Of a stretch of 64,000 nt of DNA, positions 38,571 through 56,283 are shown piece after piece. The DNA comes from Clostridia bacterium. Its GTDB lineage: Bacteria > Bacillota > Clostridia > Saccharofermentanales > UBA5734. The stretch's first letter is position 1, and each line of letters starts with the position of its first letter. The DNA is taken from the NCBI GenBank assembly GCA_040772725.1, contig JAXGXR010000001.1:856377-920376 (forward strand). The letters run 5' to 3'. A program made the translations under genes and the position numbers. Below the pieces are notes generated by a model that did no database searches, was not told where the DNA came from, and saw only the letters and a program-made list of their open reading frames with translations.

Positions 38571-40043
38571 TCAGTCTTCGTTGAAGAAGCGTTCCGTGAT
38601 GACCTTGTCCTCCGTGTAGAAGTTGATCACCGCTTTCCCCTGGGCCTTGATGTCCGCGTACTGCGATTCCTTCATGCCACCGAAGGGCAGATATGCCACC
38701 GGTGCCGGGATGCCAATGTTGACACCCACCATGCCGGCCTGGACTTCCAATTTGAATTTTCTTGCGTAATAGCCATTCTGGGTGTAGATGGAAGCGCCAT
38801 TTCCATACTGGTGGTCGTTGATGATCTGGATCGCTTCATCGAGCGTATCGGCCTTCAGGATCACCACTACCGGACCGAAAATTTCCGTTTCATGGATCTT
38901 CATGCCGGGCTTGACATCCGTGAATACGGTCGGCCCGATGTAGAAGCCGTTCTCGCCGCCAGGCACCGTGATGTCACGGCCGTCAAGCGCCAGTGTCGCG
39001 CCTTCCTTGATGCCCTGGTCGATCATGGACAGGATGAAGTCCTTTGCCTTCTGCGAGATGACCGGCCCCATGACCAGAGACTCGTCCGCAAACCGCGGAT
39101 CAAGCGGATTGCCGACAATGATGTTCTTCGAGTCCTCGACAAACTTCTTGCAGATCACATCATACATCTCACCGACACCGATGATTGCCGAAGAAGCCAT
39201 GCAGCGCTGACCGGCGCAGCCATAGCAGGAGGTGGTCATGTTGCGGATGACCTGATCGAGCTTCGCGTCCGGCATGACCACCAGGTGGTTCTTGGCGCCG
39301 CCCATGGCCTGGAAGCGCTTGTTGTTTTTGGCGCATTTTTCCGCCACCACTTTACAGGTCCTGGTTGAGCCGACCAGGGAAACACCCTTGATCTTCGGGT
39401 TTTCCATGAACGCGTCCGCCACTTCCTTGTCACCATTGAGCAGGTTGAAAACGCCCGCCGGGAATCCGGCCTCGTGAATGTATTTCGTGATCAGCTGCAT
39501 GGTCATCGGCACTTGCTTCGACGCCTTGATCAGGAAGGTGTTGCCGGTCGCCAGCGCGTACGGCAGGAACCAGAACGGAACCATCGCCGGGAAATTGAAC
39601 GGTGCGATCATCGCGAACGGTCCGAGCGGAAGCCTTAAGACCTCGCCGTCAATGCCGAAGGAAGATCCGATGATCTTGTCGCCCTGCTGCAGGACCGGCA
39701 TACCGCAAGCCACCTCGATGTTCTCGTAGATCCGCTTCATTTCGGCAGCCGCGTCCGGAATGGATTTGCCCATCTCCGCCACGAGGGTGCGAACGATCTC
39801 ATCTTCATGCGCGCGAAGCAGTTCGTTCAAGACAAACAAATACCTCACTCTGCGGGCTACGGGGGTCGCGCCCCATGTCTTGAACGCCTCGGACGCGATG
39901 TCGATTGCCTTGTCGACATCCGCGCGGGTTGTCAGGGGAACCTGTGCCAGCGCTTCACCGGTCGCGGGATTGATGACATCGATGTAGCCTGAATTCTCAG
40001 GATCGACCCATTGTCCGCCAACATAATTCTTGAGTTTTTCCAT
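38571..40043 (-). CDS. CoA-acylating (methyl)malonate-semialdehyde dehydrogenase family (MmsA/IolA)
   Basis: PFNFPAMVP, AMGGAKNH, GCAGQRCMA, EIFGPV and GVNIGIPAP. Confidence 0.88.
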   Translation of the reverse strand: MEKLKNYVGGQWVDPENSGYIDVINPATGEALAQVPLTTRADVDKAIDIASEAFKTWGATPVARRVRYLFVLNELLRAHEDEIVRTLVAEMGKSIPDAAAEMKRIYENIEVACGMPVLQQGDKIIGSSFGIDGEVLRLPLGPFAMIAPFNFPAMVPFWFLPYALATGNTFLIKASKQVPMTMQLITKYIHEAGFPAGVFNLLNGDKEVADAFMENPKIKGVSLVGSTRTCKVVAEKCAKNNKRFQAMGGAKNHLVVMPDAKLDQVIRNMTTSCYGCAGQRCMASSAIIGVGEMYDVICKKFVEDSKNIIVGNPLDPRFADESLVMGPVISQKAKDFILSMIDQGIKEGATLALDGRDITVPGGENGFYIGPTVFTDVKPGMKIHETEIFGPVVVILKADTLDEAIQIINDHQYGNGASIYTQNGYYARKFKLEVQAGMVGVNIGIPAPVAYLPFGGMKESQYADIKAQGKAVINFYTEDKVITERFFNED

Positions 40044-40136
40044 GGTTCATACCTCTTTCTTCTTGCCTCTTTGGCATGGTTGCCTTGCTTCCTGGTCTTT
40101 GGTCCCCACTTTTATCAGTGTGCCCGGAATCAGGCT

Positions 40137-41138
40137 TCAACTGATCCGCCTGACGCTGCCGCGAACGGCCAAGGATGGCGGGAACACGATCTTTCTTGGT
40201 TTTTGTCCATCAGTCGTAATCAGGTCAATCATCATCTCGGCGGCCGAAACCCCCATGGGATAAGGGTCATGACTGATTGTCGTCAGTTTGACCGGTCCAC
40301 TGATGGCCGCCGGTGAATCATCAAAGCAAATGACACTGACATCTCCCGGAATGGAAAGGCCCTGCGCAAGGATCCGCTCACAGAATCCGGTCGCCATCAG
40401 GTCATTGGCGCAGAAGACAGCTGAACAATCACCAAGTTTTCCGAGAAAATACTCGCCAAAACGAATTCCGGAATCCTTTTTCAAATCGCCGTGGCGGACC
40501 GCGTCTTCCGAAAGGGAGATCTGGCAATCCCGAAGCGCGTCCCGAAAGCCACGTTCCCGGTCCTGGCTCGCTGTCGAATTTTCCGGTCCGGCCAAGTGGG
40601 CGATCCTGCGATGGCCTTCATCAGCCAGATGGATCGCCGCCATGTATCCGCCACGATAATTGTCGATGCAGACGGTGTTCAGATCCATCGACCGGATCGT
40701 CCGATTGGCCAGGACGACCGGAAATCGCACCTGTTTCAGGGCGGTCAGCAGGCCGGCTGTCTCGATGGCCGTCAGCATGATCAGACCGTCATATCTGTTA
40801 TCCCCAGCATAACGAACCAGTTCCTCCTCAGACGCAGGATCATAGTCACTGCTGAAAATCGCGAGCTTGAGACCCTGTTCCTTGAGTGTTTCCTGTATCC
40901 CTCTGATCATGCCTAGATAAAATGGATTCATCAGGTCACCGACAATGAGCATGACGGTACCGATCCTTGCAGCCTCCCTCCTGACGTGTGGCTGATGCCT
41001 GTACCCCAGTTCCTGCGCAAGTTCACGAATTTTCAGCCGGGTCTCCGGCTTGACTGATGTTGTTTCAGAGAACGCTCTGGAAATGGTGGCAATGGAATAG
41101 CCACTTTTTCGCGCGATGTCTCTGATTGTCACCGACAT
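40137..41138 (-). CDS. LacI family transcriptional regulator
   Basis: TIRDIARKSGYSIATISRA HTH; CANDLMA, VSVICFDD and LTTI. Confidence 0.92.
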   Translation of the reverse strand: MSVTIRDIARKSGYSIATISRAFSETTSVKPETRLKIRELAQELGYRHQPHVRREAARIGTVMLIVGDLMNPFYLGMIRGIQETLKEQGLKLAIFSSDYDPASEEELVRYAGDNRYDGLIMLTAIETAGLLTALKQVRFPVVLANRTIRSMDLNTVCIDNYRGGYMAAIHLADEGHRRIAHLAGPENSTASQDRERGFRDALRDCQISLSEDAVRHGDLKKDSGIRFGEYFLGKLGDCSAVFCANDLMATGFCERILAQGLSIPGDVSVICFDDSPAAISGPVKLTTISHDPYPMGVSAAEMMIDLITTDGQKPRKIVFPPSLAVRGSVRRIS

Positions 41139-41179
41139 GCCGATACCTCTTCACATTTTCCATCAAGGATGGGGCGGAT

Positions 41180-41382
41180 ATGTAACGAATAAATTGTTAC
41201 ATTCATTCTTGCTCATTTCCATAATACCTATCGTAACAAATGATCATGATCATATTTGTTACATCATCATTGTACGTCATTGACGCGAATATTCAAGCCA
41301 CTTTATATGTTTTTGACATATCATCAAAAATCATATCATTGTTTTGCTTAACATGCATATGTAACATATTCATTTGTTACAT
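41180..41382. promoter_or_regulatory. Three inverted-repeat operator candidates upstream of the LacI gene
   Basis: ATGTAAC-N9-GTTACAT (41180), GTAAC-N20-GTTAC (41233) and ATGTAAC-N10-GTTACAT (41359) in an AT-rich spacer. Confidence 0.65.
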
Positions 41383-41401
41383 TATTTTCTGAATGCAACA
41401 G

Positions 41402-41444
41402 AAAAGCCGGCCCGATGCTGGTTTTTGCATGCGCGGCCGGCTTT
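41402..41444 (-). terminator. Terminator after the glycerate kinase gene
   Basis: AAAGCCGGCC...GGCCGGCTTT with a U tract on the minus strand. Confidence 0.6.
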
Positions 41445-41503
41445 GACTAACGTTTTTCAATGGGCTTGGCGTTGTCTCTATCGTCGGTGATCAGCCATGT
41501 GGT

Positions 41504-42643
41504 TCATTTTTTGGCTACGATCAGTCGAACGAGGGTCCGGACCATCGCGATGAGGTCGATCTTGGCGTTCTGGAGTGTCTCCTCTAACGGAGCCAGGTCA
41601 CGGATGGTGCTCACGACCGTCGTAAAACCAACGCCGTAAAGGGGATCCACATCCTTGCCCAGCGAGCCGACGACGCCGATTACCGGTACATTGAACTTCC
41701 TGGCCCGCATCGCGACGCCCACCGGGGTCTTGCCTGATAGGCTCTGGCCGTCCATTCGGCCTTCGCCGGTAAAGACATAATCCGCCTGGCTCACCAATTC
41801 GTCGAAATGAGCCGCGTCGAGAAGCAGTTCGATGCCGGGACGCAACGTTCCTCCCAGGAATGCCACCACAGCAGCACCCAGACCGCCGGCCGCGCCGGCG
41901 CCGGGGATAGTGCGGACATCGAGGCCCAGATCGGCTTCAATGCGTTCGGCCATGTTGCGCAGGCCCTTGTCGAGCGCTTCTACCATGGCCGGGTCTGCGC
42001 CTTTTTGCGGACCGTAGATGTAGGCGGCACCATTCGTCCCATACAAAGGGTTGTTCACGTCACAGGCAGCCTCGATAACGACCGAATCGGGAATCATGCG
42101 GGTCTTGGGCGGGATGATCTTCGCAACTTTCGACAGGCTTCCGCCCACGGGCGACAGCTCTTGACCGTCCTGATCCACAAAACGGAAACCCAGGGCCTGG
42201 GCCATGCCCAGTCCGCAATCATTGGTCGCGCTGCCGCCAAGTCCGATCACGATTTTCTTCGCGCCGGCTTCAGCCGCCTTGAGGATCAGCTCGCCGACAC
42301 CCAGGGAAGTTGTCTTTTCCGGGTTGCGCTCTTCACGGGACAGCATCGGCAATCCAGCGGCCGCAGCCATTTCCACGATCGCCGTATCGTCATCCAGCAT
42401 GCCGTAGAATGAACTGACCGGAGCGAACAAAGGGCCGGTGACCGTTGTTTCGATCCGGCGGCCTTTGCCGCCGCTCATGGAAAGGAAGGCATCGACAAGG
42501 CCTTCGCCGCCATCGGCGACCGGGACTTTGTCAACATGAGCGCCCGGGTCGAGTTCCTGGATGATGGATTCAATCAGGTCGCAAATCTCAATCGAGGACA
42601 TGGTCCCTTTGAATGAGTCAGGGGCTAACACATATCTGCGCAT
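41504..42643 (-). CDS. Glycerate kinase (GlxK/GarK family)
   Basis: APDSFKGT, VADGGEG, GLGGSATND, GAGAAGG and TGEGRMDGQS. Confidence 0.94.
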   Translation of the reverse strand: MRRYVLAPDSFKGTMSSIEICDLIESIIQELDPGAHVDKVPVADGGEGLVDAFLSMSGGKGRRIETTVTGPLFAPVSSFYGMLDDDTAIVEMAAAAGLPMLSREERNPEKTTSLGVGELILKAAEAGAKKIVIGLGGSATNDCGLGMAQALGFRFVDQDGQELSPVGGSLSKVAKIIPPKTRMIPDSVVIEAACDVNNPLYGTNGAAYIYGPQKGADPAMVEALDKGLRNMAERIEADLGLDVRTIPGAGAAGGLGAAVVAFLGGTLRPGIELLLDAAHFDELVSQADYVFTGEGRMDGQSLSGKTPVGVAMRARKFNVPVIGVVGSLGKDVDPLYGVGFTTVVSTIRDLAPLEETLQNAKIDLIAMVRTLVRLIVAKK

Positions 42644-42659
42644 GGCATTCCCTCTCACT

Positions 42660-43619
42660 TCATTTGTTGACGACGTTGACCGGCGTTCCCTTCAGGAACT
42701 TCGCCAGGTTTTCCACGGCAATGTTCATCAGGCGCTGGCGGCTTTCCTTCGGCGCCCAGGCGATGTGCGGCGTGATGATGCAGTTCTTCGCTGTCAGCAA
42801 GACGTTGTCCGGCAGGATTGGTTCAGCGGAAACAACATCGGTGGCATAATAGCCAATCTGGCCGGACTCCAATGCGTCTTTCACATCCTGCTCGTTGACC
42901 AGCGGTCCGCGGGAGGTGTTGATGATGATGACGCCCTTCTTCATCCTGGCGATTGAATCCTTGTTGATCATGCCCTGGGTGGACGGGAAAAGCGGGACAT
43001 GCAGGCTGATCACATCGGCTTTGGCAAACAGCTCATCAAGTGACACATAGTCGGCCATTTCACGGAAGTCATCGTTTGGATACTCGTCATAAGCCAGGAT
43101 GTGCATGCCGAGGGCTTTCGCGATGCCCGCAGTCTGTTGGCCGATACGGCCAAACCCGATCACGCCGAGCGTCTTGCCGGCCAATTCAATAAGCGGGTAA
43201 TCCCAGAAGCAGAAATCCGGATTGGATGACCAACGGCCTTTCTTGACTTCCTCAGAGTGATGGCCGACATGGTGGCAAACTTCCAGAAGGAGGGCGATCG
43301 CCATCTGGGCCACGGCAATCGTGCCATAGGTCGGGATGTTGGTGACCGGAATGCCTTTTTCCTTGGCGTAAACATAGTCAACCACGTTGTACCCGGTGGC
43401 AAGGACGCTGATGAACTTGAGATTCGGGCATGCGTCGATGGTCTCCTTGGTGATCGGGGTCTTGTTGGTGTAAACAACATCCGCGTCGCCGATTCGGGCG
43501 ACGATCTGGTCGGCGGGTGTACGGTCATAAACCGTCAGTTCGCCCAGGGCTTCGAGGCCGGACCAGGAAAGGTCACCGGGATTTTCTGTATAGCCGTCTA
43601 AAACAACAATCTTGGTCAT
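42660..43619 (-). CDS. D-2-hydroxyacid dehydrogenase (glycerate dehydrogenase/hydroxypyruvate reductase-like)
   Basis: KIVVLDGYTENPGDLSW, GFGRIG, INTSRG and TPHIAW. Confidence 0.9.
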   Translation of the reverse strand: MTKIVVLDGYTENPGDLSWSGLEALGELTVYDRTPADQIVARIGDADVVYTNKTPITKETIDACPNLKFISVLATGYNVVDYVYAKEKGIPVTNIPTYGTIAVAQMAIALLLEVCHHVGHHSEEVKKGRWSSNPDFCFWDYPLIELAGKTLGVIGFGRIGQQTAGIAKALGMHILAYDEYPNDDFREMADYVSLDELFAKADVISLHVPLFPSTQGMINKDSIARMKKGVIIINTSRGPLVNEQDVKDALESGQIGYYATDVVSAEPILPDNVLLTAKNCIITPHIAWAPKESRQRLMNIAVENLAKFLKGTPVNVVNK

Positions 43620-43701
43620 AGTCTTGTTCTCCTGTTTTCTTGTGATTCCATCGTCAGGATGGATCCGATCACATTGTCCTGTCGGGGTTGATGGCCCGAG
43701 A

Positions 43702-44610
43702 TCAAAGCTTGGCCCATGCTTCGTTGAGGTAACGCTTCGCGTTGGCGATGACCATTTCGGGATCCTCATCCCCCCACGGCTTCACCTCAAAACTGACGAT
43801 CTTGCGCTCGTTCTCGTTCAGGTAACCAATCTCGAAAAGCGCTTTCAGATAGTCTGCCAGCTCATTGACGCCATTGGCGCTGTTCGGGAAGCCGAAACGC
43901 GGATGCTGGTCGCCATGGGCTTCGGCACCGGGAAGATTGACTGCGTTGCCAACATGCGCATGCTTGACATACTTGGCAACCGGCACCAGGTTTTCACGAA
44001 TGGATTCATGCAGGATCGGAACATGGCTGAGATCGACCATCAGGCCGAAATTGTCGACGTGCTTGTTCACTTCCTCGGCAAAGCGTGCCGCAAGCGGTGC
44101 CGGGCCGATCAAGGAGCTCTTGTCGATGTCAAAGTCAAACACTTCCAGGTTGACCGGCATGTTGGCCTTCTCCTTGGCGTATTTGCACACTTCGACCGTT
44201 GATTTGACGAGAGCCTGGAAGCTTTCTTCCTTGGTCTCTTCTTCGTATTTGCCGGACAGGAAACCAAAACCGGTGCAGCCAAGCTCGGCTGCGATATCGA
44301 TGCCTTCCTTCAGGTTGGCCACCGCGACCAGGCGTTTCTCCTCGTCAAGGTCGTTGATGTTCTGCTTGGTCCGCAGCAGGCGCGGCTGGGCACCGAAAAC
44401 CATCGAGATTCCGGACACGTCCACCATCTTCCTGACGGCTTCGCGGGCGGCCGGATCATTGATTGTCGTCACCTCAATGGCGTCAAAGTAGTCGTCCGCA
44501 CAGATCCTGCGGATCGTGTTGACGATGTCGCCGTCTCCGCTCATGGCAAACGGATAGGCCATGAAATGGATCAATCCCACTTTCATGTATTTCTTCATGG
44601 ATTCATTCAT
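43702..44610 (-). CDS. Xylose-isomerase-like TIM-barrel isomerase/epimerase
   Basis: Metal-ligand pattern NLEVFD, VDLSH, HAHVG, SFEVKP. Confidence 0.8.
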   Translation of the reverse strand: MNESMKKYMKVGLIHFMAYPFAMSGDGDIVNTIRRICADDYFDAIEVTTINDPAAREAVRKMVDVSGISMVFGAQPRLLRTKQNINDLDEEKRLVAVANLKEGIDIAAELGCTGFGFLSGKYEEETKEESFQALVKSTVEVCKYAKEKANMPVNLEVFDFDIDKSSLIGPAPLAARFAEEVNKHVDNFGLMVDLSHVPILHESIRENLVPVAKYVKHAHVGNAVNLPGAEAHGDQHPRFGFPNSANGVNELADYLKALFEIGYLNENERKIVSFEVKPWGDEDPEMVIANAKRYLNEAWAKL

Positions 44611-44710
44611 TCTTATTCCCCCTTTGTGAAAACGTGTACGATTATCATCCCGCAAGTGAGCCTGAATTGTCAATCGGGCTCATGCGGGCAAAATCACGTC
44701 TTTGGAGATT

Positions 44711-45445
44711 TCAGGCACGCTTCGCTTTGGCAAACTTGCCAAGGTAGGCTTCGACAACGCGGTCATCTGTCCGCAGTTCATGGGCTTTGCCGCTCAGGAT
44801 GACCCGGCCCTGTTCGATGACGTACGCTTCGTGCGAGATTTCCAGCGCCAGTTTCGCGTTCTGCTCGACCAGCAGGATCGGTATGCCGAGTTTGTTGATT
44901 TCAATGATCTTTTTGAACAGGTCGGCGACAATGACCGGGGCCAGGCCCATGGATGGTTCGTCAAGCATCAGCACTTTCGGCCTCGCCATCAGTGCCCGTC
45001 CGATGGCGAGCATCTGCTGCTCACCGCCGGAAAGGCTCCAGCCCAACTGGTTGCGGCGTTCCTCGAGGCGCGGGAACAGCTCGAAGACGGCTTTCATGTC
45101 CTTGTCATACGGCTTTCTCCCGAAAAAGCCATGCCAGTTGATCGTTCCGGTTTCGAGATTCTCTTCAACCGACAGTCCGGGAAACACGTGACGGCCTTCG
45201 GGAACATGGACGATGCCCTTCTTGGCTATCTGGATCGAATTCTTGCCGATGATCTCTTCCGTGTCATTGTAAATGATGCTGCCGGTTCGCTGGATCATGC
45301 CCGAGATGGATTTAAGAAGCGTCGTCTTGCCGGCGCCGTTCGATCCGATCAGGCAGGTGATCTTGCCGGCCTCCACATTGAGGTCAAGTCCTTTCAACGC
45401 TTCAACCGGGCCATAGTATGCATGCAGGTTTTTAATCTTAAGCAT
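44711..45445 (-). CDS. HAAT-family ABC ATP-binding protein (LivF-like)
   Basis: GSNGAGKTT, VPEGRHVF, LSGGEQQMLAIGRALM and DEPSMGLAP. Confidence 0.93.
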   Translation of the reverse strand: MLKIKNLHAYYGPVEALKGLDLNVEAGKITCLIGSNGAGKTTLLKSISGMIQRTGSIIYNDTEEIIGKNSIQIAKKGIVHVPEGRHVFPGLSVEENLETGTINWHGFFGRKPYDKDMKAVFELFPRLEERRNQLGWSLSGGEQQMLAIGRALMARPKVLMLDEPSMGLAPVIVADLFKKIIEINKLGIPILLVEQNAKLALEISHEAYVIEQGRVILSGKAHELRTDDRVVEAYLGKFAKAKRA

Positions 45446-48109: not shown

Positions 48110-48142
48110 TGCTGAGGGACGATTTTTGGTCGTCCCTCAGCA
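48110..48142 (-). other. Intergenic stem-loop after the substrate-binding gene (probable mRNA-stabilising element)
   Basis: TGCTGAGGGACGA...TCGTCCCTCAGCA, 13-bp stem without a clear U tract. Confidence 0.6.
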
Positions 48143-48162
48143 GTCAGTCGAATCGATGGGGT

Positions 48163-49431
48163 TTAGCCAACCTTGACGACTTCGATCATCGTCGCCTTGC
48201 CGTCCTTGTTCAGGGTCAGGAACTGGCTGGTGCTGAAGCACCGGTTGGCTTGTGCGGTGTAGGTGGACATGGCACCCGGATAATCCTTGATCTTGGCAAG
48301 GTTGTCATTGATCTTCTGCGGGTCGGCGGATCCGCCCATCTTGATCGCTTCCGCGATCATCATGATGGAGTCGTAGGCGGTAACGGCCGGCATGTCGGAT
48401 TCCTGGTTATAGGCAGCCTGGTAGGCATCGGCGAACGCCTTGCCTGAAGCTGTTGTAACTTCGACGGTCCAGTCGGAAACAGCGTACCAGCCATCGGCTG
48501 AAGCGCCGGCCGCTTCGCGGGCGACGGCAGAACCAAACGAGGACGAACCGAGTGTCGGCAGGTCGAAGCCTGCGTCATCAGCCTGCATCATGATCAGGGA
48601 AGCCTGGACCTGGTGGCTGATGGAGATCAGGCCATCGACATCGGAAGCCAGGATCTGGTTGATGATCGGTCCATACTGCTTTTCATCCGGAATATGCGAA
48701 TAGACGTTCTTGGAGTCGACTTCGATGCCCTTGGTCTTGAGGGCGGCGATCGTCTGCTCGGCCAGTCCGCTTCCGAACGAGTCATTGATGTGCAGGATGG
48801 CGGGGTTCTTCATGCCGAGCGTGCCTGTGGCGGCGGTGGCGAGCAGCATGCCGGACTTGTCGTCAGTCATGCGGGCCTGCCAGATGTAGGGGTTGTTCTG
48901 CTTCGGGATGTTGGCAGAGGAGCCGCCCGAAAGCATCGGGATCTTCTTTTCCTGCACCTGCGGGGAAACCGCGATACAGAAGGCAGAGTAGGTGGAACCA
49001 AAGAAAGCGGAAACATTGGGGTTGTTGATCAGCTTGGTCATCGCGTTGACGGAGGAAGCCTGGTCATAGACTTCGTCTTCGAAAACCAGCTCGATCTGCT
49101 TGCCCAGGACGCCACCTTTGTCGTTGATGTGCTTGGCAGCCAGTTTGGAGCCGTTGACGACATAGTCGCCGACCAGCTTGTTCGTACCGGTTAGGGCGGC
49201 GGTGACGCCGATGTAGATCTTGTCGAGCTTGTCATAGGGGCTGTCGCTGGCCGCGGTGGTGCCGGCCGTTGTCCCGGCTGTTGTCCCGGCGGTGGTGGCA
49301 GCGGTCGTCGCCGCGGTGGTGGCGGCGGTCGTTGCGGCAGTGGTCGCGGCGGTGGTGGTCGCGGTCGACTGGCATGCCGACAGCAGCATCAGCGCTACGA
49401 GCAGGATGGCGAGGATTGAGCGTTTTTTCAT
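48163..49431 (-). CDS. HAAT-family ABC substrate-binding lipoprotein with Thr/Ala repeat linker
   Basis: LLSAC lipobox, (TTAA)n/(TTAG)n linker, IGVTAALTG and INDKGGVLGKQIELVFED. Confidence 0.92.
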   Translation of the reverse strand: MKKRSILAILLVALMLLSACQSTATTTAATTAATTAATTAATTAATTAGTTAGTTAGTTAASDSPYDKLDKIYIGVTAALTGTNKLVGDYVVNGSKLAAKHINDKGGVLGKQIELVFEDEVYDQASSVNAMTKLINNPNVSAFFGSTYSAFCIAVSPQVQEKKIPMLSGGSSANIPKQNNPYIWQARMTDDKSGMLLATAATGTLGMKNPAILHINDSFGSGLAEQTIAALKTKGIEVDSKNVYSHIPDEKQYGPIINQILASDVDGLISISHQVQASLIMMQADDAGFDLPTLGSSSFGSAVAREAAGASADGWYAVSDWTVEVTTASGKAFADAYQAAYNQESDMPAVTAYDSIMMIAEAIKMGGSADPQKINDNLAKIKDYPGAMSTYTAQANRCFSTSQFLTLNKDGKATMIEVVKVG

Positions 49432-49700
49432 GATGTTGTGTCCTCCTTGATAAATATGTCTCATGGCTTTTATAGCCGGTAGACCCGAAAACAAACGGTC
49501 CATCCCCTGTCGTCCTTCAGTTGTGGGGCGAGGCCGCCTTGCGTGGCACTGGTCCAGACTAGACCCATTATGCAAAATGTTCCGTCACATTGTCACATTT
49601 TGACTGAAAACTATCCTAATTATATCAAACGCTCATGGCTGATTCAACAAATCATTTCAAACGAATATCATGATTCGTTCAATCAGCAAGAGGCGTTTGC

Positions 49701-49729
49701 TTGATAAGCAGCCAGCCATTTAATATACT
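49701..49729 (+). promoter_or_regulatory. Sigma-A promoter of the dehydrogenase-transketolase operon
   Basis: TTGATA-17 nt-TATACT. Confidence 0.65.
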
Positions 49730-49832
49730 GGTATGAGAACGCCTGTTTGCAGGCACGAACAATCAAGCCGCAAACCGTTGACAGGCGGCAATCAAAGAGA
49801 GGGGGGCCAGCGCATCTCATGCGCGTGAACAG

Positions 49833-50873
49833 ATGAAAGCACTCGTCAAGTACGCACCAGGACCCGGCAACATGGAAATCCGTGATATCCCCGAGCCGAC
49901 ACCCGGACCCGGCCAGATCAAGATCGAGGTCAAGGAAGCCGGCATATGCGGATCTGACCTTCATATTTACCACAGCGACATTGCCATCCCCGTCAACCCG
50001 CCGGTCGTCACCGGCCACGAATTCTCTGGCGTCGTCGCCGCTGTCGGCGAAGGCGTCACCCGTTTCAAGCCCGGTGACCGTGTCGTTTCCGAGACCGCCT
50101 ACCACTATTGCGGTGTCTGCGACTATTGCCGCGAAGGCTTCTACAACCTCTGCGTCGAGCGCAAGACACTCGGCTACTGGTTCAACGGCGTCTTCACCAG
50201 ATACACCGTCGTTCCGGAAGGACGTGTACACGCCATCCCGGACAATGTCAGCTTCACGGCCGCCGCCATGACGGAGCCTCTCGCTTGCGTCGCTCACGCG
50301 GTCTATGATCTGTGCCATATCGTTCCGAACGACCTGGTCCTGATTTCAGGTCCAGGCGCGATCGGCCTCATGGCCCTGCAGATCGCCAAGGCCTTCGGCG
50401 CCCGCACGATCGTCAGCGGCACCAATGTCGACACCGAGCGCCTTGAGCTGGCAAAAAAGCTTGGAGCGGACTACACGATCAATTCCCAGCAGGAAAGCCT
50501 GGCCGAGCGCATCAACGGCCTGACCAACAATTACGGTGCCAATGTCGTCCTCGAATGCTCGGGCAACCAGTATGCCGTGGACGCCGCGCTCAATGTCATC
50601 AAGAAGCGCGGTTATTACACCCAGATCGGCCTGCCGGGCAAGAAAATCGAATTTGACATCGAAAAAGTCTGCTATAAGGAACTTCATTTCTCCGGCTCGC
50701 TCGGTTCCAGGAACCACAGCTGGCGCATGGCGCTCGGCCTGATGTCGAGCGGCAAAGTGCAGCTCGAGCCGCTGGCGACGGTCAAGCTCCCGATCACCGA
50801 ATGGGAGAAGGGCTTCGAGATGTTCGAGAAGAAGCAGGGCTACAAGCTCTTCCTGATGCCGGTCGAAGATTAG
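49833..50873 (+). CDS. Zn-dependent polyol/sugar-acid dehydrogenase (MDR family) 1
   Basis: CGSDLH, GHE, CGVCDYC...C and GPGAIG. Confidence 0.92.
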
Positions 50874-50913
50874 GCAAACGATCCATTCCAATTAGAATCA
50901 TTGGAGGTAATAC

Positions 50914-51747
50914 ATGGGCATTTCAGTCGAAAGAAAAAAAGAACTCTCTGACCTGGCCAACAAGTTCCGCATCGATGTGCTGGGCACCATCCATGACGCG
51001 CAGACCGGCCACCCGGGCGGATCCCTGTCCGTCGTCGAAATCCTGACGGCCCTTTTCTTCGAGAAGGCGAACGTCGACGCTCAAAACCCCAAATGGCCGG
51101 AACGGGACCGTGTTGTCCTGTGCAAAGGCCACGCTGCCCCGATGCTCTACCGCATCCTGGCTGAAAAGGGCTTCTTCCCGGTCGACGAGATGAAGACCCT
51201 GAGAAAACTCAACACCCGGCTCCAGGGCCATCCTTCCGCCAAGGACACGCCCGGTGTCGAGCTTTCCACCGGACCGCTCGGCCTCGGCCTCTCCGCCTGC
51301 CTCGGCATGGCCTGCGGCCTGAAGCTCGACAAGATCGACAGCACCGTGTTCGCCATCCTCGGTGACGGCGAATTGAACGAAGGCACCGTCTGGGAAGCCA
51401 CGATGGCGGCGCCGAAGTTCAAGGCCGACAACCTGATCGCGATCGTCGACTGGAACGGCGTCCAGCTCGATGGCACAAATGACGAGATCCTGCCTTTAGG
51501 CGACCTGCATGCCAAGTTCGAGCTTTTCGGCTGGGATGTCCAGACTGTCGACGGCCATGACCTCGAAGCCCTGTGCGACGCGATCGACAACGCCCGCGAG
51601 AAGAACGGCAAACCGAAGATGATCCTGGCCAAGACGGTCAAGGGCAAGGGTGTCTCCTTCATGGAAGGCAAGAACACCTGGCACGGCAAGCCCATCAATG
51701 ACGAAGAATTCGCCCTGGCGATGAAAGAACTGGGAGGTGCACAATAA
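50914..51747 (+). CDS. Split transketolase, N-terminal (ThDP-binding) subunit
   Basis: GHPGGSLS, KGHAAP, LQGHP, GDGELNEG...N and KGKGVSFME...WH. Confidence 0.93.
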   Translation: MGISVERKKELSDLANKFRIDVLGTIHDAQTGHPGGSLSVVEILTALFFEKANVDAQNPKWPERDRVVLCKGHAAPMLYRILAEKGFFPVDEMKTLRKLNTRLQGHPSAKDTPGVELSTGPLGLGLSACLGMACGLKLDKIDSTVFAILGDGELNEGTVWEATMAAPKFKADNLIAIVDWNGVQLDGTNDEILPLGDLHAKFELFGWDVQTVDGHDLEALCDAIDNAREKNGKPKMILAKTVKGKGVSFMEGKNTWHGKPINDEEFALAMKELGGAQ

Positions 51748-52682
51748 TGCCGCGTGCAATTAGAGATGTTTATGGTGACATGCTGGTCAAATACGGCAAA
51801 GACAACCTGGACGTCGTCGTCCTGGACGCTGACGTCGCCAGTTCGACGAAGACCGGTGCTTTCGGCAAGGCCTATCCGGATCGATTCTTCAATGTCGGCA
51901 TCGCCGAGGCCAACATGGTCGCGATGGCTGCCGGCCTTTCAACCACCGGAAAAATCCCCTTTGCCAACACCTTCGCGGTCTTCCTGACCTCGATCGGCCT
52001 GATCGGCGCCCGCGCGTTCGGTTCCTATTCCAAACTCAACATCAAGATGATGGGTGCTTACGGCGGCCTGTCGGACGCCTTTGACGGCCCGACCCACCAT
52101 TCGGTCGAGGATATCGCGATCATGCGGTCCCTGCCGAATTTCGAAGTCCTCGTCGCCACGGATGAAGTCCAGACCGAATGGCTCGTCCAGCATGCGATCG
52201 AGAAAAAGGGCCCGATGTACATCCGCCTCAGCCGCGATGCGTCCCCGACGGTCTACCAGCCGGGCACGACCTTCGAACCCGGCAAGGGCAAGCTCGTCCG
52301 CGAGGGCAAGGATGTCACCGTCTTCGCCTGCGGCATCATGGTCGGCCAGGCCATGGAAGCGGCTGAAAACCTCGCGAAAAAGGGCATTGACGTCGAAATC
52401 ATCGACCTGTTCAGCATCAAGCCGATCGATGCGGAGATGATCCTGAAATCCGCCGCCAAGACCAAAGCCGTTGTGACAGCCGAGGAGCACAACATCATCG
52501 GCGGCCTGGGCAGCGCGGTATCCGAAGTGCTTTCTGCCGGCAACGCGCGCGTGCCGGTCGAATTCGTCGGTCTCAAGGACACCCATGCCGAGTGCGGCAA
52601 ATATTCCGAGTTGCTCTGCAAGTACGGTCTCGACGTCGACAGCATTGAACTGGGCGTCGAAGCGGTCATGAAGAAGAAATGA
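51747..52682 (+). CDS. Split transketolase, C-terminal subunit
   Basis: GIAEANM, DGPTHHS.ED, PMYIRL and EEHNIIGGLGS. Confidence 0.93.
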   Translation: MPRAIRDVYGDMLVKYGKDNLDVVVLDADVASSTKTGAFGKAYPDRFFNVGIAEANMVAMAAGLSTTGKIPFANTFAVFLTSIGLIGARAFGSYSKLNIKMMGAYGGLSDAFDGPTHHSVEDIAIMRSLPNFEVLVATDEVQTEWLVQHAIEKKGPMYIRLSRDASPTVYQPGTTFEPGKGKLVREGKDVTVFACGIMVGQAMEAAENLAKKGIDVEIIDLFSIKPIDAEMILKSAAKTKAVVTAEEHNIIGGLGSAVSEVLSAGNARVPVEFVGLKDTHAECGKYSELLCKYGLDVDSIELGVEAVMKKK

Positions 52683-52768
52683 TTCAATGAAATGAGCCGA
52701 TCGGATCGGGGCTGGCTTTGCCGGCCCTGATTCATCTGGCGAGTCTTTTGGGAAAGGAAGCCGATATT

Positions 52769-53803
52769 ATGCTGAGAGCCAATCTTGTCGCCCCCTTCAC
52801 GATCAATCTCGAGGAAGTCCCCATTCCGGAAATCAAGGACAATGAAGTCCTGCTCAAAGTCCATTATGTTGGCATCTGCGGCTCCGACCTCCAGATGTAC
52901 CATGGCAAGCACAAATACATGACATTCCCGGTTGTCTTCGGTCACGAGCTTTCCGCCTCGATTGTCAAGGTCGGACAAGCGGTCAATGACTGGCAGGAAG
53001 GCGAAATGGTCACCGTTGAGCCCCAGATCGCCTGTGGAGAGTGCTTCCCCTGCCAGATCGGGCGTTTCAACGTCTGTGAAAACCTCAAGGTCCAGGGTGT
53101 GCACGCGGATGGCTACATGGCCCAGTATGTCGCGGCGGAACCCAAATTCCTGCATCGCTGCCCTCCGGGCCTGGATCCCCAGCAGGTCGCGCTCGTCGAG
53201 CCGCTCGCGGTCGGCGTCGGCTCTGTCAAACGGGCTGGCAACTACAAGGACGCAAACATCCTGGTCGTTGGTGCCGGCACGATCGGCAACATGGTCGCCC
53301 AGGCAGCCAAGGCACTCGGTGCAGCCAAGGTCCTGGTCTCGGACATCAACCCGATGAAACTGGCCCTGGCGCTTGAATGCGGTGCCGACGCAGTTGTCAA
53401 CGTCGCCGAGAAGAGCCTCAAGGACGCCATCGCCGAAACCTTTGGCACCCGCAAGGCCGACATCATCATTGACGCCGCCGCCACCCGGGCCGGTTTCCAG
53501 AGCATCCTCGAAGTCGCCCGCCCCAGTTCCACGATCGTCATCACCGGCAATTACAAGGATCCGCTCGAGGTCGAGATGCCGCGCATCCAGCGCCAGGAGA
53601 TCTCCCTGCTTGGCCACATGATGTATGTCCGCGAGGACTTCGCTGACGCGATCTCCTTCATACAGGAAGGCAAGATCCGCACCGATGGCTTCATCACCGC
53701 CGTCTATCCGTTCAGGAAGACGCTCGACGCGTTCCACTGGATCGATGAACACCCCAACGACTTCATGAAGCTTCTCGTCGACGTCCAGAACCTCGAAAGC
53801 TGA
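52769..53803 (+). CDS. Zn-dependent dehydrogenase (MDR family) 2
   Basis: CGSDLQ, GHE, CGECFPC...C and GAGTIG. Confidence 0.9.
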   Translation: MLRANLVAPFTINLEEVPIPEIKDNEVLLKVHYVGICGSDLQMYHGKHKYMTFPVVFGHELSASIVKVGQAVNDWQEGEMVTVEPQIACGECFPCQIGRFNVCENLKVQGVHADGYMAQYVAAEPKFLHRCPPGLDPQQVALVEPLAVGVGSVKRAGNYKDANILVVGAGTIGNMVAQAAKALGAAKVLVSDINPMKLALALECGADAVVNVAEKSLKDAIAETFGTRKADIIIDAAATRAGFQSILEVARPSSTIVITGNYKDPLEVEMPRIQRQEISLLGHMMYVREDFADAISFIQEGKIRTDGFITAVYPFRKTLDAFHWIDEHPNDFMKLLVDVQNLES

Positions 53804-53825
53804 CACCCTCAGGGTTCCGGAAAAC

Positions 53826-53865
53826 GCGGCAGATGATCCATCCAGAGTCATCTGCCGCTGCTTTT
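53826..53865 (+). terminator. Terminator-like hairpin before pdxA2
   Basis: GCGGCAGATGA...TCATCTGCCGC followed by TGCTTTT. Confidence 0.6.
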
Positions 53866-53912
53866 AATCACGAAGGGCAAATCATCCTGCCTGATACCGG
53901 AGGTGTTTTTCC

Positions 53913-54887
53913 ATGATTGCAGTCACAATGGGCGACGGCAACGGCGTCGGCCCCGAAATCATCCTCAATGCCTACCGCCAGGGGCTACTGACCGGCGAAT
54001 ATGTCATCGTCGGTGACGCCTCTGTCCTCAGTCTTTGCAACAGCCAGCTCCAGTACGGAGTCAGTGTCCACCCGATCCAGGCAATCTCGGAATACAAGCC
54101 TGGCCGTCTGAACGTCCTGGACCTGGGTCTCCTGAATAGTGCCGATGTGGTGCCAGGCACCATTTCGGAAAAAGTCGCGGCTGCTTCCCGCGCCTACATC
54201 GTCCGCGCCACCCAGCTCTGCCTGGCCCGGACATTCGACGCGATGGTGACGCTGCCGGTCAACAAGGAAGCAATCCGCCTGAGCGACCCGAACTTCACCG
54301 GGCACACCGAGCTGATCGCGGAGATATGCGGCCAGTCAGACTATACCATGATGCTCGCGTCCGACAAACTGACAGTCACCCATGTCAACACGCACTGCTC
54401 GATGCAGGACTCGATCGACCGGACCACAAGGGCCAATGTCCTCAAGATCATCCGTCTGACCCATGAGGCCCTGAGCCGCATGAAAGCCGAACCGCGCATC
54501 GCCGTCGCCGGACTCAATCCGCACGCGGGCGAGGGTGGTGCGTTTGGCAGGCAGGAGATTGACGAGATCGCGCCGGCCATCGAGGACGCGCGTCAGGAGG
54601 GCATCAACGCGTCCGGCCCTCACCCGGCCGACACCGTCTTCCTCAAGGCCGTCCAGGGCCAGTTTGACGCGGTTGTCTGCATGTATCACGACCAGGGGCA
54701 TGTCCCGATGAAACTTCTGGATTTCCATGGCGGCGTCAACATCACCCTCGGGCTTTCCGTCATCCGTACTTCTGTCGACCATGGAACGGCTTTCGACATC
54801 GCCTACAAGGGCATCGCGGCGACCGGCAGTTTCCTGGAAGCCTACAAGATGGCCGTGAAAATGACCGCGCAGCAAGCTGAAGCATAA
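53913..54887 (+). CDS. pdxA: PdxA family dehydrogenase, probably PdxA2 (tetronate-4-phosphate dehydrogenase)
   Basis: TMGDGNGVGPE, GHTE, LNPHAGE, MYHDQG and RTSVDHGTAFDIA; adjacent to a DUF1537 kinase. Confidence 0.9.
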   Translation: MIAVTMGDGNGVGPEIILNAYRQGLLTGEYVIVGDASVLSLCNSQLQYGVSVHPIQAISEYKPGRLNVLDLGLLNSADVVPGTISEKVAAASRAYIVRATQLCLARTFDAMVTLPVNKEAIRLSDPNFTGHTELIAEICGQSDYTMMLASDKLTVTHVNTHCSMQDSIDRTTRANVLKIIRLTHEALSRMKAEPRIAVAGLNPHAGEGGAFGRQEIDEIAPAIEDARQEGINASGPHPADTVFLKAVQGQFDAVVCMYHDQGHVPMKLLDFHGGVNITLGLSVIRTSVDHGTAFDIAYKGIAATGSFLEAYKMAVKMTAQQAEA

Positions 54888-54937
54888 TCGAGCTGCTGTC
54901 TAGTACAACAAAAGGGCCGAATCAATGATCCCACATG

Positions 54938-54963
54938 AAAGGACGCCGGGCGGCGTCCTTTTT
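54938..54963. terminator. Bidirectional terminator
   Basis: AAAGGACGCCG-gg-CGGCGTCCTTTTT. Confidence 0.8.
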
Positions 54964-54999
54964 CGTTGCTTTGCACGCGAATTGGCTTCAGTCCACTGA

Positions 55000-56283
55000 T
55001 CAGATCGAATTCAGGAATGTCTCGATTTTCTCCACGACATCGTCTCCGCCAAAGCCGCCGGCTTTCGTAATCACATACAGATTGAGCCTTTCATCCGCAA
55101 AACGGGCCAGCGCGACGCCCGGCGTGATCTCAACGACCGGACGCATCAGGTGGCAGCCGAGCTTGTCAGCGATGCCCAGAAGCGTGTCCCCGCCAAAAAC
55201 AATCAATGTCCCAATACGCGGCGAATCCATCCTGTCGATCATCCTTTTGACGATCGTGCCAATGTTGCCGGCGATCAAAGCGGCCAGTTCCTCACCGGAG
55301 ATGCCCAGTTCCCCGGCCCGCGCGGCAGCGTCGTCCGCGGCAGACTGGCCCCGTTTTGACCAGATGGCTGCCCGGCCCGATTCTTGAAGCTGCTTCCCCA
55401 GACGGGATTCCCAGGCTTCGTCTACGTGACCGGCGAGGATCTTCTGTTCCACGGTGAGCAGGCTGTCGGCGTAGTCACAATGCTCAAACGCGTATTGGAC
55501 CTGCTTGACGGACATTGGATTGACGCTGCCGGAGACCAGAAGCGTGCTTCCATCCGGCTTCACGACTTCAGGAGCGGCCGCTTCAAGGCCCAATAGTTCC
55601 GGCAGATACTCGGCAAAACCGGCACAGCCGGCCAATAGATTGAGTTTGCCGGCCGATTCCAGTATCCGGCCGATCGCCTGCAGGTCTGCATCGCTTTCGG
55701 TATCGATGACACGGATCACTTTTTCGCCAGCCGGCTTTCCGGCCAATATGTCAAACTGCCCCATCCATACATTTTCGACAGGCAGTTCTGTCTGCGCATG
55801 AATGATCTCCTTGACGCCGCTTTCGCGGATCGGGTTGAATGGATCGTTGGCAAAGGCGGTTTCATGCAGCAAAGTGTCCCCGACATACTGCAGGCCCTGC
55901 CGGGTGAAACGGCCCGACTTGGGGAAAGCGGGCACAAAGACCATTTCCCGCCAACGAGGATCGTCATCTTCGCCAAGGGCGTCGAGCACGGCCATCATCT
56001 CACTGCCGATGTTGCCGCGCAGTGTGGAGTCGGTTTTCTTGTAGATGTGCGTAAACCCCGCTGCCAGGGCGCCGTCTACGACCGAACGGACCTTCCGGTA
56101 CGCCTCCTCGGGGGTCACATGCCGGCTTTCCGTGTTGACGACCAGGACCTGGCAGGCGGCCTTCAGGTCAACCGGCTGGTCGCGCAGGACCGTCACCAAC
56201 GTGTCGATCCCTCGTTTGGCAAACTGCACACCGGTGTCCAGGCTGCCGGTGAAATCATCGGCGATCATCAGAAGTCTGGTCAT
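55000..56283 (-). CDS. Four-carbon acid sugar kinase family protein (DUF1537)
   Basis: IADDFTG, YKKTDSTLRGN, PAFP..GR, GGDT and TKAGGFG. Confidence 0.92.
   Translation of the reverse strand: MTRLLMIADDFTGSLDTGVQFAKRGIDTLVTVLRDQPVDLKAACQVLVVNTESRHVTPEEAYRKVRSVVDGALAAGFTHIYKKTDSTLRGNIGSEMMAVLDALGEDDDPRWREMVFVPAFPKSGRFTRQGLQYVGDTLLHETAFANDPFNPIRESGVKEIIHAQTELPVENVWMGQFDILAGKPAGEKVIRVIDTESDADLQAIGRILESAGKLNLLAGCAGFAEYLPELLGLEAAAPEVVKPDGSTLLVSGSVNPMSVKQVQYAFEHCDYADSLLTVEQKILAGHVDEAWESRLGKQLQESGRAAIWSKRGQSAADDAAARAGELGISGEELAALIAGNIGTIVKRMIDRMDSPRIGTLIVFGGDTLLGIADKLGCHLMRPVVEITPGVALARFADERLNLYVITKAGGFGGDDVVEKIETFLNSI

Follow-up and report, generated by a model that had tools for sequence, protein, structure and literature searches.

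Positions 38571 to 56283 of a 64-kb stretch of DNA (C1:856377-920376 of the 2.74-Mb genome G000; hereafter, the window) carry a set of genes around a split transketolase, most of which recur as a syntenic unit in other genomes. The conserved core consists of a HAAT-family ATP-binding cassette (ABC) importer, a D-isomer-specific 2-hydroxyacid dehydrogenase (2-HADH), a xylose-isomerase-like TIM barrel, a zinc-dependent medium-chain dehydrogenase/reductase (Zn-MDR), the split transketolase, and another Zn-MDR; a glycerate kinase may be present or absent. We read this unit, tentatively and with slightly more doubt than confidence, as a catabolic operon for an imported, unphosphorylated polyhydroxy-carboxylate, with steps that we infer from its genes. 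An earlier reading of the letters alone (the original prediction) had proposed a transketolase-based sugar-acid pathway with three-carbon (C3) and four-carbon (C4) exit branches spanning the interval; it is partly supported. The genes of the unit are as follows.

41504-42658, minus strand: class I glycerate kinase (TIGR00045, 444.7 bits; cutoff, 168.45)
42660-43769, minus strand: 2-HADH (PF02826/PF00389; likely true start near 43630)
43702-44673, minus strand: xylose-isomerase-like AP_endonuc_2 TIM barrel (PF01261, 66 bits; likely true start near 44616)
44711-45484 and 45438-46196, minus strand: two LivG/LivF-type ABC ATPases (PF00005 plus BCA_ABC_TP_C)
46180-47178 and 47189-48064, minus strand: two BPD_transp_2 permeases (PF02653), syntenic in core-type loci
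48163-49575, minus strand: Peripla_BP_6 substrate-binding lipoprotein of the HAAT-family ABC importer (PF13458, 187 bits), heading the minus-strand operon
49576-49832, no strand: divergent promoter region that separates the importer and MDR/transketolase operons, holding a 30-nucleotide (nt) inverted repeat
49833-50873, plus strand: Zn-MDR dehydrogenase 1 (MDR1), threonine-3-dehydrogenase-like (PF08240/PF00107)
50914-51747, plus strand: split transketolase N subunit (TKN), thiamine diphosphate (ThDP) binding (PF00456, 200 bits)
51747-52682, plus strand: split transketolase Pyr/C subunit (TKC), "YD" clade (PF02779/PF02780)
52718-53803, plus strand: Zn-MDR dehydrogenase 2 (MDR2), sorbitol-dehydrogenase/ketose-reductase-like (Pfam)

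Open reading frames (ORFs) of at least 100 amino acids were listed, 20 chosen ones were submitted to Pfam, and NCBIfam profiles were also scored. By these searches, every gene named in the original prediction is an intact ORF at its place. The listed starts of the TIM barrel and the 2-HADH are probably too long, because their orthologues are shorter (~303 to 305 and ~319 to 333 amino acids, respectively). As had been claimed, the 20 ORFs given to Pfam showed no dehydratase, KDPG (2-keto-3-deoxy-6-phosphogluconate)-type aldolase, or RuBisCO-like domain.

Conservation was assessed with a scan anchored on the TIM barrel (alignment A1), which covered 185,579 species genomes and found 465 relatives; 80 loci were kept, each with as much as 10 kb of flanking sequence per side. 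Their neighbor content was determined by tblastn with all window proteins and by ORF clustering; many neighbor genes in these related loci carry no family annotation, and tblastn was relied on at high-GC loci, where greedy ORF calling fails because antisense ORFs win. Orthologues of MDR1, TKN, and TKC (at least 55% identity) occur together in 9 of the 80 loci (L019, L023, L024, L027, L031, L038, L043, L081, and L083), and L026 is a truncated tenth core locus. MDR1 is 73 to 84% identical across the core loci, MDR2 is present in eight of the nine (58 to 76% identical), and the HAAT importer is present in most, with orthologues of its binding protein (59 to 78% identity) in 8 of the 80 loci. L023, L024, L027, and L043 share a single order in one direction (GntR, binding protein, two permeases, two ATPases, 2-HADH, TIM barrel, MDR, TKN, TKC, MDR, and optionally glycerate kinase), of which L019, L031, L038, L081, and L083 show variants; in L031, a locus of only 9.6 kb, DsbD-like and thioredoxin-like genes stand at the place of MDR2. 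Two pairs of core loci are near duplicates (L024/L027 and L081/L083), and about six lineages are counted besides the window's genus. Cultured carriers include Oscillospiraceae bacterium PP1C4 (L038, core type), Anaerosolibacter carboniphilus DSM 103526 (L032, TRAP type), and Christensenella tenuis NSJ-35 (L075, TIM barrel/2-HADH module only). The arrangement is beyond chance, since other genomes show these genes in synteny as well. Glycerate kinase was seen in four of the nine core loci, from three lineages, and is the sole core kinase; no sugar kinase was found in the core loci.

A homologue of the 2-HADH (at least 50% identical) is present in 68 of the 80 TIM loci, no more than 600 bp from the TIM gene in 66 of them; where the sequence reaches 1.5 kb or more beyond that gene on both sides (62 loci), 52 have it. 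The loci represent Clostridia, Bacteroidota, Planctomycetota, Treponema, and other groups, and their TIM proteins are ~60% identical to that of the window. A class I glycerate kinase is found with the two genes in 28 of the 80 loci, and a class II enzyme (DUF4147 plus MOFRL), encoded directly upstream of the TIM gene, replaces it in L066 and L085. This module was found behind four kinds of carbon-carbon bond enzyme, split transketolases among them. Directly upstream of the TIM gene in L063, L072, and L097 is a ThDP enzyme whose best score is to glyoxylate carboligase (624 to 636 bits against an equivalog cutoff of 791, versus 463 to 513 bits for acetolactate synthase), and the same ORF cluster is also found in L040, L041, and L058. 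A KDPG/KHG-type aldolase takes this position in L064, L067, and L079, preceded in L064 by genes for a glucose/sorbosone dehydrogenase, an Amidohydro_2 protein, and an RraA-like protein. Genes like 3-hydroxy-3-methylglutaryl-CoA (HMG-CoA) lyase precede the module in nine Clostridia loci (L028, L029, L033, L034, L035, L037, L051, L055, and L056), and six Bacteroidota loci (L071, L076, L077, L089, L090, and L095) have a lactate/glycolate-permease-family gene directly upstream of the TIM barrel and 2-HADH genes. In L032, genes for a tripartite ATP-independent periplasmic (TRAP) transporter, a fucose-isomerase-like protein, and a second AP_endonuc_2 protein are followed by transketolase, TIM barrel, 2-HADH, and glycerate kinase genes, the last four of which also occur in L050; in L080, DctP and DctM lie upstream of another TIM-like gene and of a transketolase outside the YD type (signature N..G).

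The product of glyoxylate carboligase is tartronate semialdehyde, and the substrates required by a 2-HADH and by glycerate kinase are a 2-oxo acid and glycerate, respectively. The only chain fitting an aldose-ketose isomerase, a D-specific 2-HADH, and a glycerate kinase would run from tartronate semialdehyde over hydroxypyruvate and D-glycerate to phosphoglycerate. On this genomic context, we propose that the TIM barrel is a tartronate semialdehyde/hydroxypyruvate isomerase and the 2-HADH a hydroxypyruvate reductase; the best PDB match of the latter is 5tx7 (an uncharacterized 2-HADH), followed by glycerate/glyoxylate reductases. The predicted C3 exit through these enzymes is thereby backed by independent genomic contexts, and the predicted hydroxypyruvate isomerase finds its support there too, but the protein is not Hyi or OtnI by sequence.

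Two kinds of locus with this module have further features. In the nine HMG-CoA-lyase-type loci (e.g., L034:110-13000), genes for RraA-like, Zn-MDR, HMG-CoA-lyase-like, and HMG-CoA-reductase-like proteins precede those for the TIM barrel, 2-HADH, and glycerate kinase; the HMG-CoA-lyase-like protein scores 363 bits, which exceeds the subfamily cutoff. These loci also encode a CUT1 ABC importer, a PCC-domain protein, and an AraC-type response regulator, and they belong to an unassigned pathway, perhaps for a branched-chain sugar. The Bacteroidota loci, four of the six with a glycerate kinase, look like polysaccharide utilization loci feeding the module, with SusC/SusD genes in L071, L077, L089, and L095 and GHL6-family proteins in L071 and L077.

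The window's transketolase subunits match the split transketolase of Carboxydothermus hydrogenoformans (6yak) with 290 bits (TKN) and 306 bits (TKC). The GDG...N ThDP motif and catalytic His residues of TKN align with 6yak and human transketolase. In TKC, human R318, S345, D424, and R474 are kept as R6, S33, D113, and R163, and the phosphate-binding H416 is replaced by Tyr105. We take the phosphate-binding set to be R318, S345, H416, and R474 in the human enzyme and R358, S385, H461, and R520 in that of Escherichia coli. Compared with canonical transketolase (EC 2.2.1.1), the window enzyme thus has the domains and the catalytic His residues and lacks the full Arg/Ser/His/Arg set of the phosphate site. 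Tyr occupies the His position in 18 of 23 C subunits encoded beside the TIM barrel, followed by Ser-Asp versus the canonical Ser-Val. Among 110 C subunits, taken from the scan above, the control scan described below, and the window's genome, 31 had this YD signature and 65 the canonical HV signature; position 105 was Tyr in all 31 and His in all 65. The residues that separate the two types (G103, Y105, D110, and S162) lie at or beside the phosphate-site His and Arg. In a FastTree phylogeny, in which support values are local only, the YD sequences formed one clade of 32 leaves with a single "YS" member nested in it.

A control scan without conditioning on the TIM barrel used metagenome contigs anchored on transketolase (alignment A2). 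Of 13 YD/YS-type loci, 2 had a TIM gene nearby (both among the 9 loci of 6 kb or more), versus 0 of 67 other loci, so the link between YD transketolases and the TIM barrel is specific but not universal. The neighborhood analysis that the original prediction had called for, run on both proteins, found recurring co-occurrence (9/80; 2/13 versus 0/67), and its view that this is not a housekeeping transketolase is borne out by the His-to-Tyr change, the distinct clade, and the lack of a sugar kinase in the core. A high-GC "YDALDHH" subclade (L102, L103, L105, and L112; GC content, 62 to 66%) has neither a TIM barrel nor a 2-HADH gene in the surrounding 10 kb; the gene directly downstream of the transketolase in L102 is GHMP/galactokinase-like.

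Published cases bear on the donor. One study reports that replacing R358/H461/R520 in E. coli TktA raises activity on 5-keto-D-gluconate (PMC12016104), and a second has a transketolase start the cleavage of the same compound (PMC13527115), a precedent for the predicted reaction. SqwGH splits unphosphorylated sulfofructose with glyceraldehyde 3-phosphate as the acceptor (PMC9594981). Given these cases and the absence of any core kinase besides glycerate kinase, an unphosphorylated donor is most likely for the window's enzyme.

The genome encodes six split transketolase pairs and one long transketolase, the other pairs lying at C1:623-625 kb, C1:992-994 kb, C1:1315-1317 kb, C2:70.7-72.4 kb, and C2:102.5-104.3 kb. 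Over the pairs, the residue at the His position is Tyr (window), His (three pairs), Ser, and Asp, and this variation suggests several donor specificities. A gene for a GlxR/GarR-like beta-hydroxyacid dehydrogenase directly follows Ser-type transketolases at G000:C2:70687-73349, L082:2111-5926 (where a glycerate kinase also follows the pair), and L130, and a YD-type transketolase (signature YDFKDHH) in L111. These loci are the same theme, with a direct semialdehyde reductase replacing the TIM barrel and 2-HADH.

The importer and the dehydrogenases bear on the likely substrate. All nine orthologous binding proteins, including the window's, have Ser at the position of LivJ Glu226 and His at that of LivJ Tyr202, and the GPEGV motif of LivJ/LivK aligns with GSSS[FW] in the window's protein and its eight orthologues. 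Glu226 is presumably the acidic residue that binds the alpha-ammonium group of the substrate; since it has no equivalent here, an amino acid substrate, suggested by the HAAT importer, was rejected as unlikely. The best PDB matches are L-threonine 3-dehydrogenases for MDR1 and a ketose reductase, RspB, and sorbitol dehydrogenase for MDR2; the threonine-3-dehydrogenase and sorbitol-dehydrogenase types both oxidize a penultimate secondary alcohol. TRAP transporters, encoded in several related loci, are typical of carboxylates, and transketolase donors need the D-threo configuration. A pentonate oxidized at C4 fits best, which under the D-threo rule we infer to be D-arabinonate or L-xylonate; six-carbon acids would leave a tetruronate after transketolase cleavage.

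In the route that we favor, the HAAT-type ABC system would import the acid, and a Zn-MDR would oxidize its penultimate carbon to give a HOCH2-CO-CHOH- terminus; the second MDR may serve an epimeric or related substrate. The YD-clade transketolase would pass the C2 ketol to a phosphorylated acceptor, e.g., glyceraldehyde 3-phosphate, yielding xylulose 5-phosphate without ATP cost and an aldehyde-acid remainder. From a five-carbon acid (4-keto-D-arabinonate/L-xylonate stereochemistry), this remainder would be tartronate semialdehyde of the "wrong" hand, which the TIM barrel would convert to hydroxypyruvate, the D-specific 2-HADH to D-glycerate, and glycerate kinase to phosphoglycerate. The presence of both an isomerase and a D-specific reductase would be explained by this hand, as direct reduction of the semialdehyde would give L-glycerate; the stereochemical argument that had been made for isomerizing and re-reducing holds for this five-carbon case. 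Being redox neutral, the sequence from MDR to 2-HADH would suit a fermenter. As an add-on, the neighboring PdxA2 and DUF1537 kinase would take D-threonate or D-erythronate through the 4-phosphate to dihydroxyacetone phosphate (DHAP) and CO2. That the YD clade as a whole comprises natural enzymes cleaving unphosphorylated keto-aldonates (4-keto-pentonates, 5-keto-hexonates, or both) and, with a new tartronate semialdehyde/hydroxypyruvate isomerase family and the reductase, forms an ATP-sparing, redox-neutral "carboxy-transketolase" route for sugar acids in anaerobic Clostridia, with variants in other phyla, is possible but rather doubtful. No description of the gene set or the route was found in the searchable literature, outside which subscription journals and supplements largely lie, so that a prior description is possible.

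Several observations weigh against this route. No glycerate kinase was seen in L019, L024, L027, and L038 (~20 kb each) or in L083 (13.8 kb), which make up five of the nine core loci, L038 has the core without 2-HADH, and YD-type transketolases occur without TIM barrel or 2-HADH in seven of the nine transketolase-anchored YD loci of at least 6 kb. In the pentonate scheme, the second MDR has no necessary role. HAAT binding proteins are not known to bind sugar acids, nor is D-arabinonate or L-xylonate known to be abundant. The Arg, Ser, and Arg retained in the phosphate site could hold either a carboxylate or, just as well, a phosphate, which makes a phosphorylated donor possible. The TIM barrel, compared as a 42-sequence profile by hhalign, matched Hyi and OtnI with probabilities of only 1.1% (E. 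coli Hyi) and 0.4% (YgbM); it gave no NCBIfam match to Hyi or OtnI at an E value of 1e-10 or less, and its only NCBIfam match is the 5-keto-L-gluconate epimerase IolO (42 bits). It could be an epimerase, since the nearest folds to its AF2 model (pLDDT, 92) are ketose 3-epimerases (TM score, ~0.7; 17 to 20% identity); a PDB sequence search gave weak epimerase matches only, and an Atlas search gave generic names only. Ketose 3-epimerases share enediol chemistry with aldose-ketose isomerases.

The following genes flank the core in the window.

38571-40043, minus strand: aldehyde dehydrogenase (ALDH) of the CoA-acylating methylmalonate/malonate-semialdehyde-dehydrogenase type (TIGR01722, 514 bits; cutoff, 448.5)
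40137-41138, minus strand: LacI-family regulator (Pfam)
53913-54887, plus strand: PdxA2-type dehydrogenase (PF04166, 338 bits)
55000-c. 56283, minus strand: DUF1537 four-carbon acid-sugar kinase, convergent with PdxA (PF07005 plus PF17042)

The last two genes bear on the C4 branch. The best PDB matches of PdxA are PdxA2 (2hi1, 269 bits) and D-threonate 4-phosphate dehydrogenase (6e85, 262 bits), followed by PdxA (203 bits); it passes the general NCBIfam pdxA model and reaches 295.5 bits against a cutoff of 583 for D-threonate-4-phosphate dehydrogenase. The kinase, of two-domain SBD_N plus NBD_C architecture and 113 bp from PdxA, has D-threonate kinase as its best NCBIfam match (238.6 bits; cutoff, 450) and scores 130.8 bits as a 3-oxo-tetronate kinase (cutoff, 350). 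PdxA follows MDR2 on the same strand after 110 bp, and the congener G002 keeps the pair at this place (PdxA, 70% identity; kinase, 60%). A kinase-PdxA pair also flanks the core in G045 (L081), PdxA and DUF1537 stand beside the TIM barrel and 2-HADH without a transketolase in L045 and L061 and beside the TIM barrel alone in L025, and PdxA-like genes accompany YD transketolases in L104 and L133. These placements speak for one pathway with two exits, in which the transketolase would cleave keto-aldonates, the TIM barrel would isomerize the resulting C3 or C4 uronate, and, after re-reduction, either glycerate kinase or the DUF1537 kinase would phosphorylate the product, with PdxA2 ending the C4 branch. 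We consider such a pathway unlikely. With the window kinase as the query, DUF1537 was not found in three of the five other core genomes (G042 to G044), in L081 the pair comes with a Mem_trans permease of its own and a CdaR-type regulator stands between it and the core, and reducing a 3-oxo-tetronate only for PdxA2 to re-oxidize it is roundabout, with no reductase identified for the step. Adjacent to the core in two lineages only (in G041, it is on another contig), the pair is most likely the known tetronate module, a lineage-specific add-on that the core does not require, and the C4 branch does not belong to the conserved core; the pair may act alone or as an outlet for C4 products of six-carbon acid cleavage.

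Some of these variant loci hold additional genes. A LarA-family (lactate racemase-like) gene upstream of PdxA, DUF1537, TIM barrel, and 2-HADH genes (L061:5635-11911) hints at 2-epimerization of a hydroxy acid in that variant. At L133:3084-10888 and L104:11-9928, the PdxA-like gene and YD-type transketolase occur with TRAP genes and a second AP_endonuc_2 gene, and no DUF1537 kinase was detected at either locus; the PdxA homologue there may act on an unphosphorylated acid.

A second alternative denies that the genes form one pathway: the transketolase would act on phosphorylated ketoses made by the MDRs and a kinase encoded elsewhere, next to separate glyoxylate/glycerate and tetronate units. 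The retained Arg6, Ser33, and Arg163, the resemblance of both MDRs to polyol or threonine dehydrogenases, and the genome's six split transketolase pairs, several of them beside MDRs, FGGY kinases, or TRAP genes, are compatible with such a juxtaposition, which we nevertheless think quite improbable. It would leave unexplained the single-operon synteny over about six lineages, with TIM barrel and 2-HADH genes between the importer and the MDR-transketolase genes, as well as the lack of a sugar kinase in any core locus, the clade-specific His-to-Tyr change, and the absence of a nearby TIM gene from all 67 non-YD transketolase loci. Glyoxylate carboligase, which we considered as the source of tartronate semialdehyde in this genome, was rejected; the best hits (36 to 37% identity) are acetolactate-synthase-like genes, and the genome has no glyoxylate carboligase orthologue to feed a separate glyoxylate unit.

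Somewhat less probable still is a hexonate route, in which L-idonate or D-gluconate would be oxidized to 5-keto-D-gluconate and cleaved by the transketolase to L-threo-tetruronate (tartaric semialdehyde); this would pass over tartrate and the decarboxylation of oxaloglycolate to hydroxypyruvate or tartronate semialdehyde and then, by TIM barrel, 2-HADH, and glycerate kinase, to phosphoglycerate. It would give every core enzyme a role, the L-idonate 5-dehydrogenase model matches both MDRs below its cutoff (154 and 166 bits), and PMC12016104 and PMC13527115 document the cleavage for E. coli and engineered transketolases. The price is an MDR acting as an aldehyde dehydrogenase and a 2-HADH acting as a tartrate dehydrogenase, neither backed by results; the sole ALDH is window specific and of the methylmalonate-semialdehyde type, and the surplus NADH would be awkward for a fermenter. 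Equally improbable is a TIM barrel that serves as a 3-epimerase fitting the keto-acid to the stereochemistry of the transketolase, with the 2-HADH and glycerate kinase handling another product: the ketose 3-epimerase folds and the IolO match given above favor it, but the TIM barrel adjoins 2-HADH where neither transketolase nor keto-sugar is involved (the glyoxylate-carboligase-like, KDPG-type aldolase, and lactate-permease contexts), and in the TRAP-type clusters the epimerase could be encoded by a further AP_endonuc_2 gene distinct from the TIM barrel gene.

The keto-aldonate route that we favor resembles several known systems in part. In the sulfo-transketolase pathway (PMC9594981), a split transketolase cleaves an unphosphorylated ketose whose anionic group is at the far end and passes the ketol to glyceraldehyde 3-phosphate, followed by an isomerase and then a reductase. 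The proposed route likewise runs from transketolase to an isomerase acting on the aldehyde to a reductase, as with SqwGH, SqwI, and SqwF. It is set apart by gene families, the window cluster having no sulfoquinovosidase, SqvD, RpiB-family SqwI, or iron-type alcohol dehydrogenase SqwF (Pfam), and its proposed anion is a carboxylate whose end product would be kept as phosphoglycerate, whereas that of the sulfo-pathway is excreted.

The E. coli glyoxylate and glucarate routes (gcl-hyi-glxR-glxK and garL-garR-garK) share the conversion of tartronate semialdehyde/hydroxypyruvate to D-glycerate and its phosphorylation, and the TIM-barrel isomerase gene of gcl-hyi-glxR has a parallel in the window's relatives, where the TIM gene lies beside a glyoxylate-carboligase-like gene. 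In contrast, the window's TIM barrel is of another family than Hyi, its D-2-HADH would act on hydroxypyruvate in place of a beta-hydroxyacid dehydrogenase on the semialdehyde, and its aldehyde would come from a transketolase. A DUF1537 kinase and PdxA2 reportedly catabolize D-threonate/D-erythronate (work attributed to Zhang et al., 2016). The window's two-domain kinase adjoins a PdxA2-type dehydrogenase in the same way but, besides the scores below equivalog cutoffs, the pair lies beside a transketolase operon and has no dedicated permease adjoining it.

The D-apiose system (apsI, aplK, aptA/aptB) also combines a split transketolase with an ABC importer in a sugar catabolic cluster. In E. coli SE15, this cluster holds two short-chain dehydrogenases/reductases (SDRs), a CUT2 importer, an FGGY kinase, and AptAB; one report has two oxidoreductases stand in for the isomerase of the apiose route in E. 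coli (PMC13001218). The substrate there is phosphorylated by the FGGY kinase, and there is no TIM barrel/2-HADH/glycerate kinase module; AptB is only 31.5% identical to the window's TKC and differs at every signature position. No FGGY gene lies in the window's cluster, the genome's best AplK homologue (39%) being ~23 kb past the window's end. The apiose transketolase pathway was therefore rejected and, with marker genes absent, the set maps onto neither the apiose nor the sulfoquinovose pathway, in keeping with the undescribed pathway of the original prediction.

Another comparison is the conversion of 5-keto-D-gluconate to tartaric semialdehyde (plant tartrate formation and TktA R358I/H461S/R520Q). 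In PMC12016104 and PMC13527115, a keto-aldonate oxidized at its penultimate carbon is the ketol donor, an MDR-type L-idonate dehydrogenase acts upstream, and specificity is tuned at the phosphate-binding His. The reaction described there is biosynthetic, promiscuous, or engineered, whereas the window's enzyme is proposed to be dedicated and catabolic, with Tyr at this position and both Arg residues kept. Tetronate routes with OtnI, OtnK, and OtnC, as described in PMC13753588, are not present in the cluster, and the genome's best OtnI/OtnC-like hits are weak (25 to 29% identity) and lie elsewhere. The Thermotoga inositol route (IolM/IolN/IolO) was rejected on subthreshold scores (219, 198, and 42 bits) and the absence of IolG and IolN families from the cluster.

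At the other end of the core, the interval holds the LacI regulator and ALDH genes, both absent from the original prediction. These and a PfkB kinase gene are neighbors and not core. A LacI copy (60 to 65% identical) stands beside the 2-HADH gene in L019 to L022 only, which belong to the window's genus, and a GntR/FCD regulator takes its place in L023, L024, L026, L027, L038, L043, L081, and L083. The ALDH is probably outside the conserved unit, its sole counterpart among the core loci being a 42% homologue in the congener's locus, L019. The predicted co-conservation thus stands for the core operon, found in 9 of the 80 TIM loci and the window, but not for PdxA/DUF1537. The window's ALDH and PfkB genes lie downstream of lacI (37352-40043, minus strand), and at L019:13518-18360 the congener carries one more split transketolase, of the Asp type, together with an ALDH unlike the window's and a PfkB kinase; the region downstream of lacI is a variable second sugar unit. 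The inverted repeat of the divergent promoter region (49626-49655 and 49670-49699) has 30-nt arms that are 80% complementary and separated by 14 nt; it is a candidate operator with its regulator unassigned. A shared LacI operator was rejected, as the palindrome upstream of lacI (41443-41460) was matched once in the window, with 1.58 matches expected by chance.

The ORFs at 49683-50318 (minus strand) and 54935-55387 (plus strand) are probably spurious, since they are antisense to MDR1 and the DUF1537 kinase, respectively, and have no Pfam match. A 946-amino-acid ABC-F protein (32201-35041, plus strand) matches a ribosomal-protection-like ABC-F family (433 bits; cutoff, 380) and has an N-terminal extension of ~280 residues outside the model. 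The closest public relatives of the region are labeled uncultured Oscillospiraceae/Clostridia, and DNA runs from an anaerobic digester contain 94% of its sampled words. Two metatranscriptome libraries from one anaerobic-digester study contain contigs (159 to 420 nt among the matches listed; 13 of 14 and 8 of 9 at least 99% alike) on PfkB, LacI, 2-HADH/TIM barrel, the binding protein, MDR1, TKN, TKC, MDR2, and the kinase; such contigs carry no level or strand information, DNA carry-over is possible, and the uncovered parts are uninformative.

If the keto-aldonate route is true, it would be the third natural transketolase-cleavage catabolic pathway, after those for apiose and sulfoquinovose, and the first for carboxylated sugars. 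A TIM-barrel family with no fewer than 465 members among species-representative genomes would gain a function, as would its partner dehydrogenase. Natural enzymes would also become available for cleaving keto-aldonates toward tartaric or tartronic semialdehydes, a reaction for which metabolic engineers now depend on mutated or promiscuous transketolases. The signature itself, Tyr for the phosphate-binding His with Asp five residues later, sorts the paralogous split transketolases of anaerobes.

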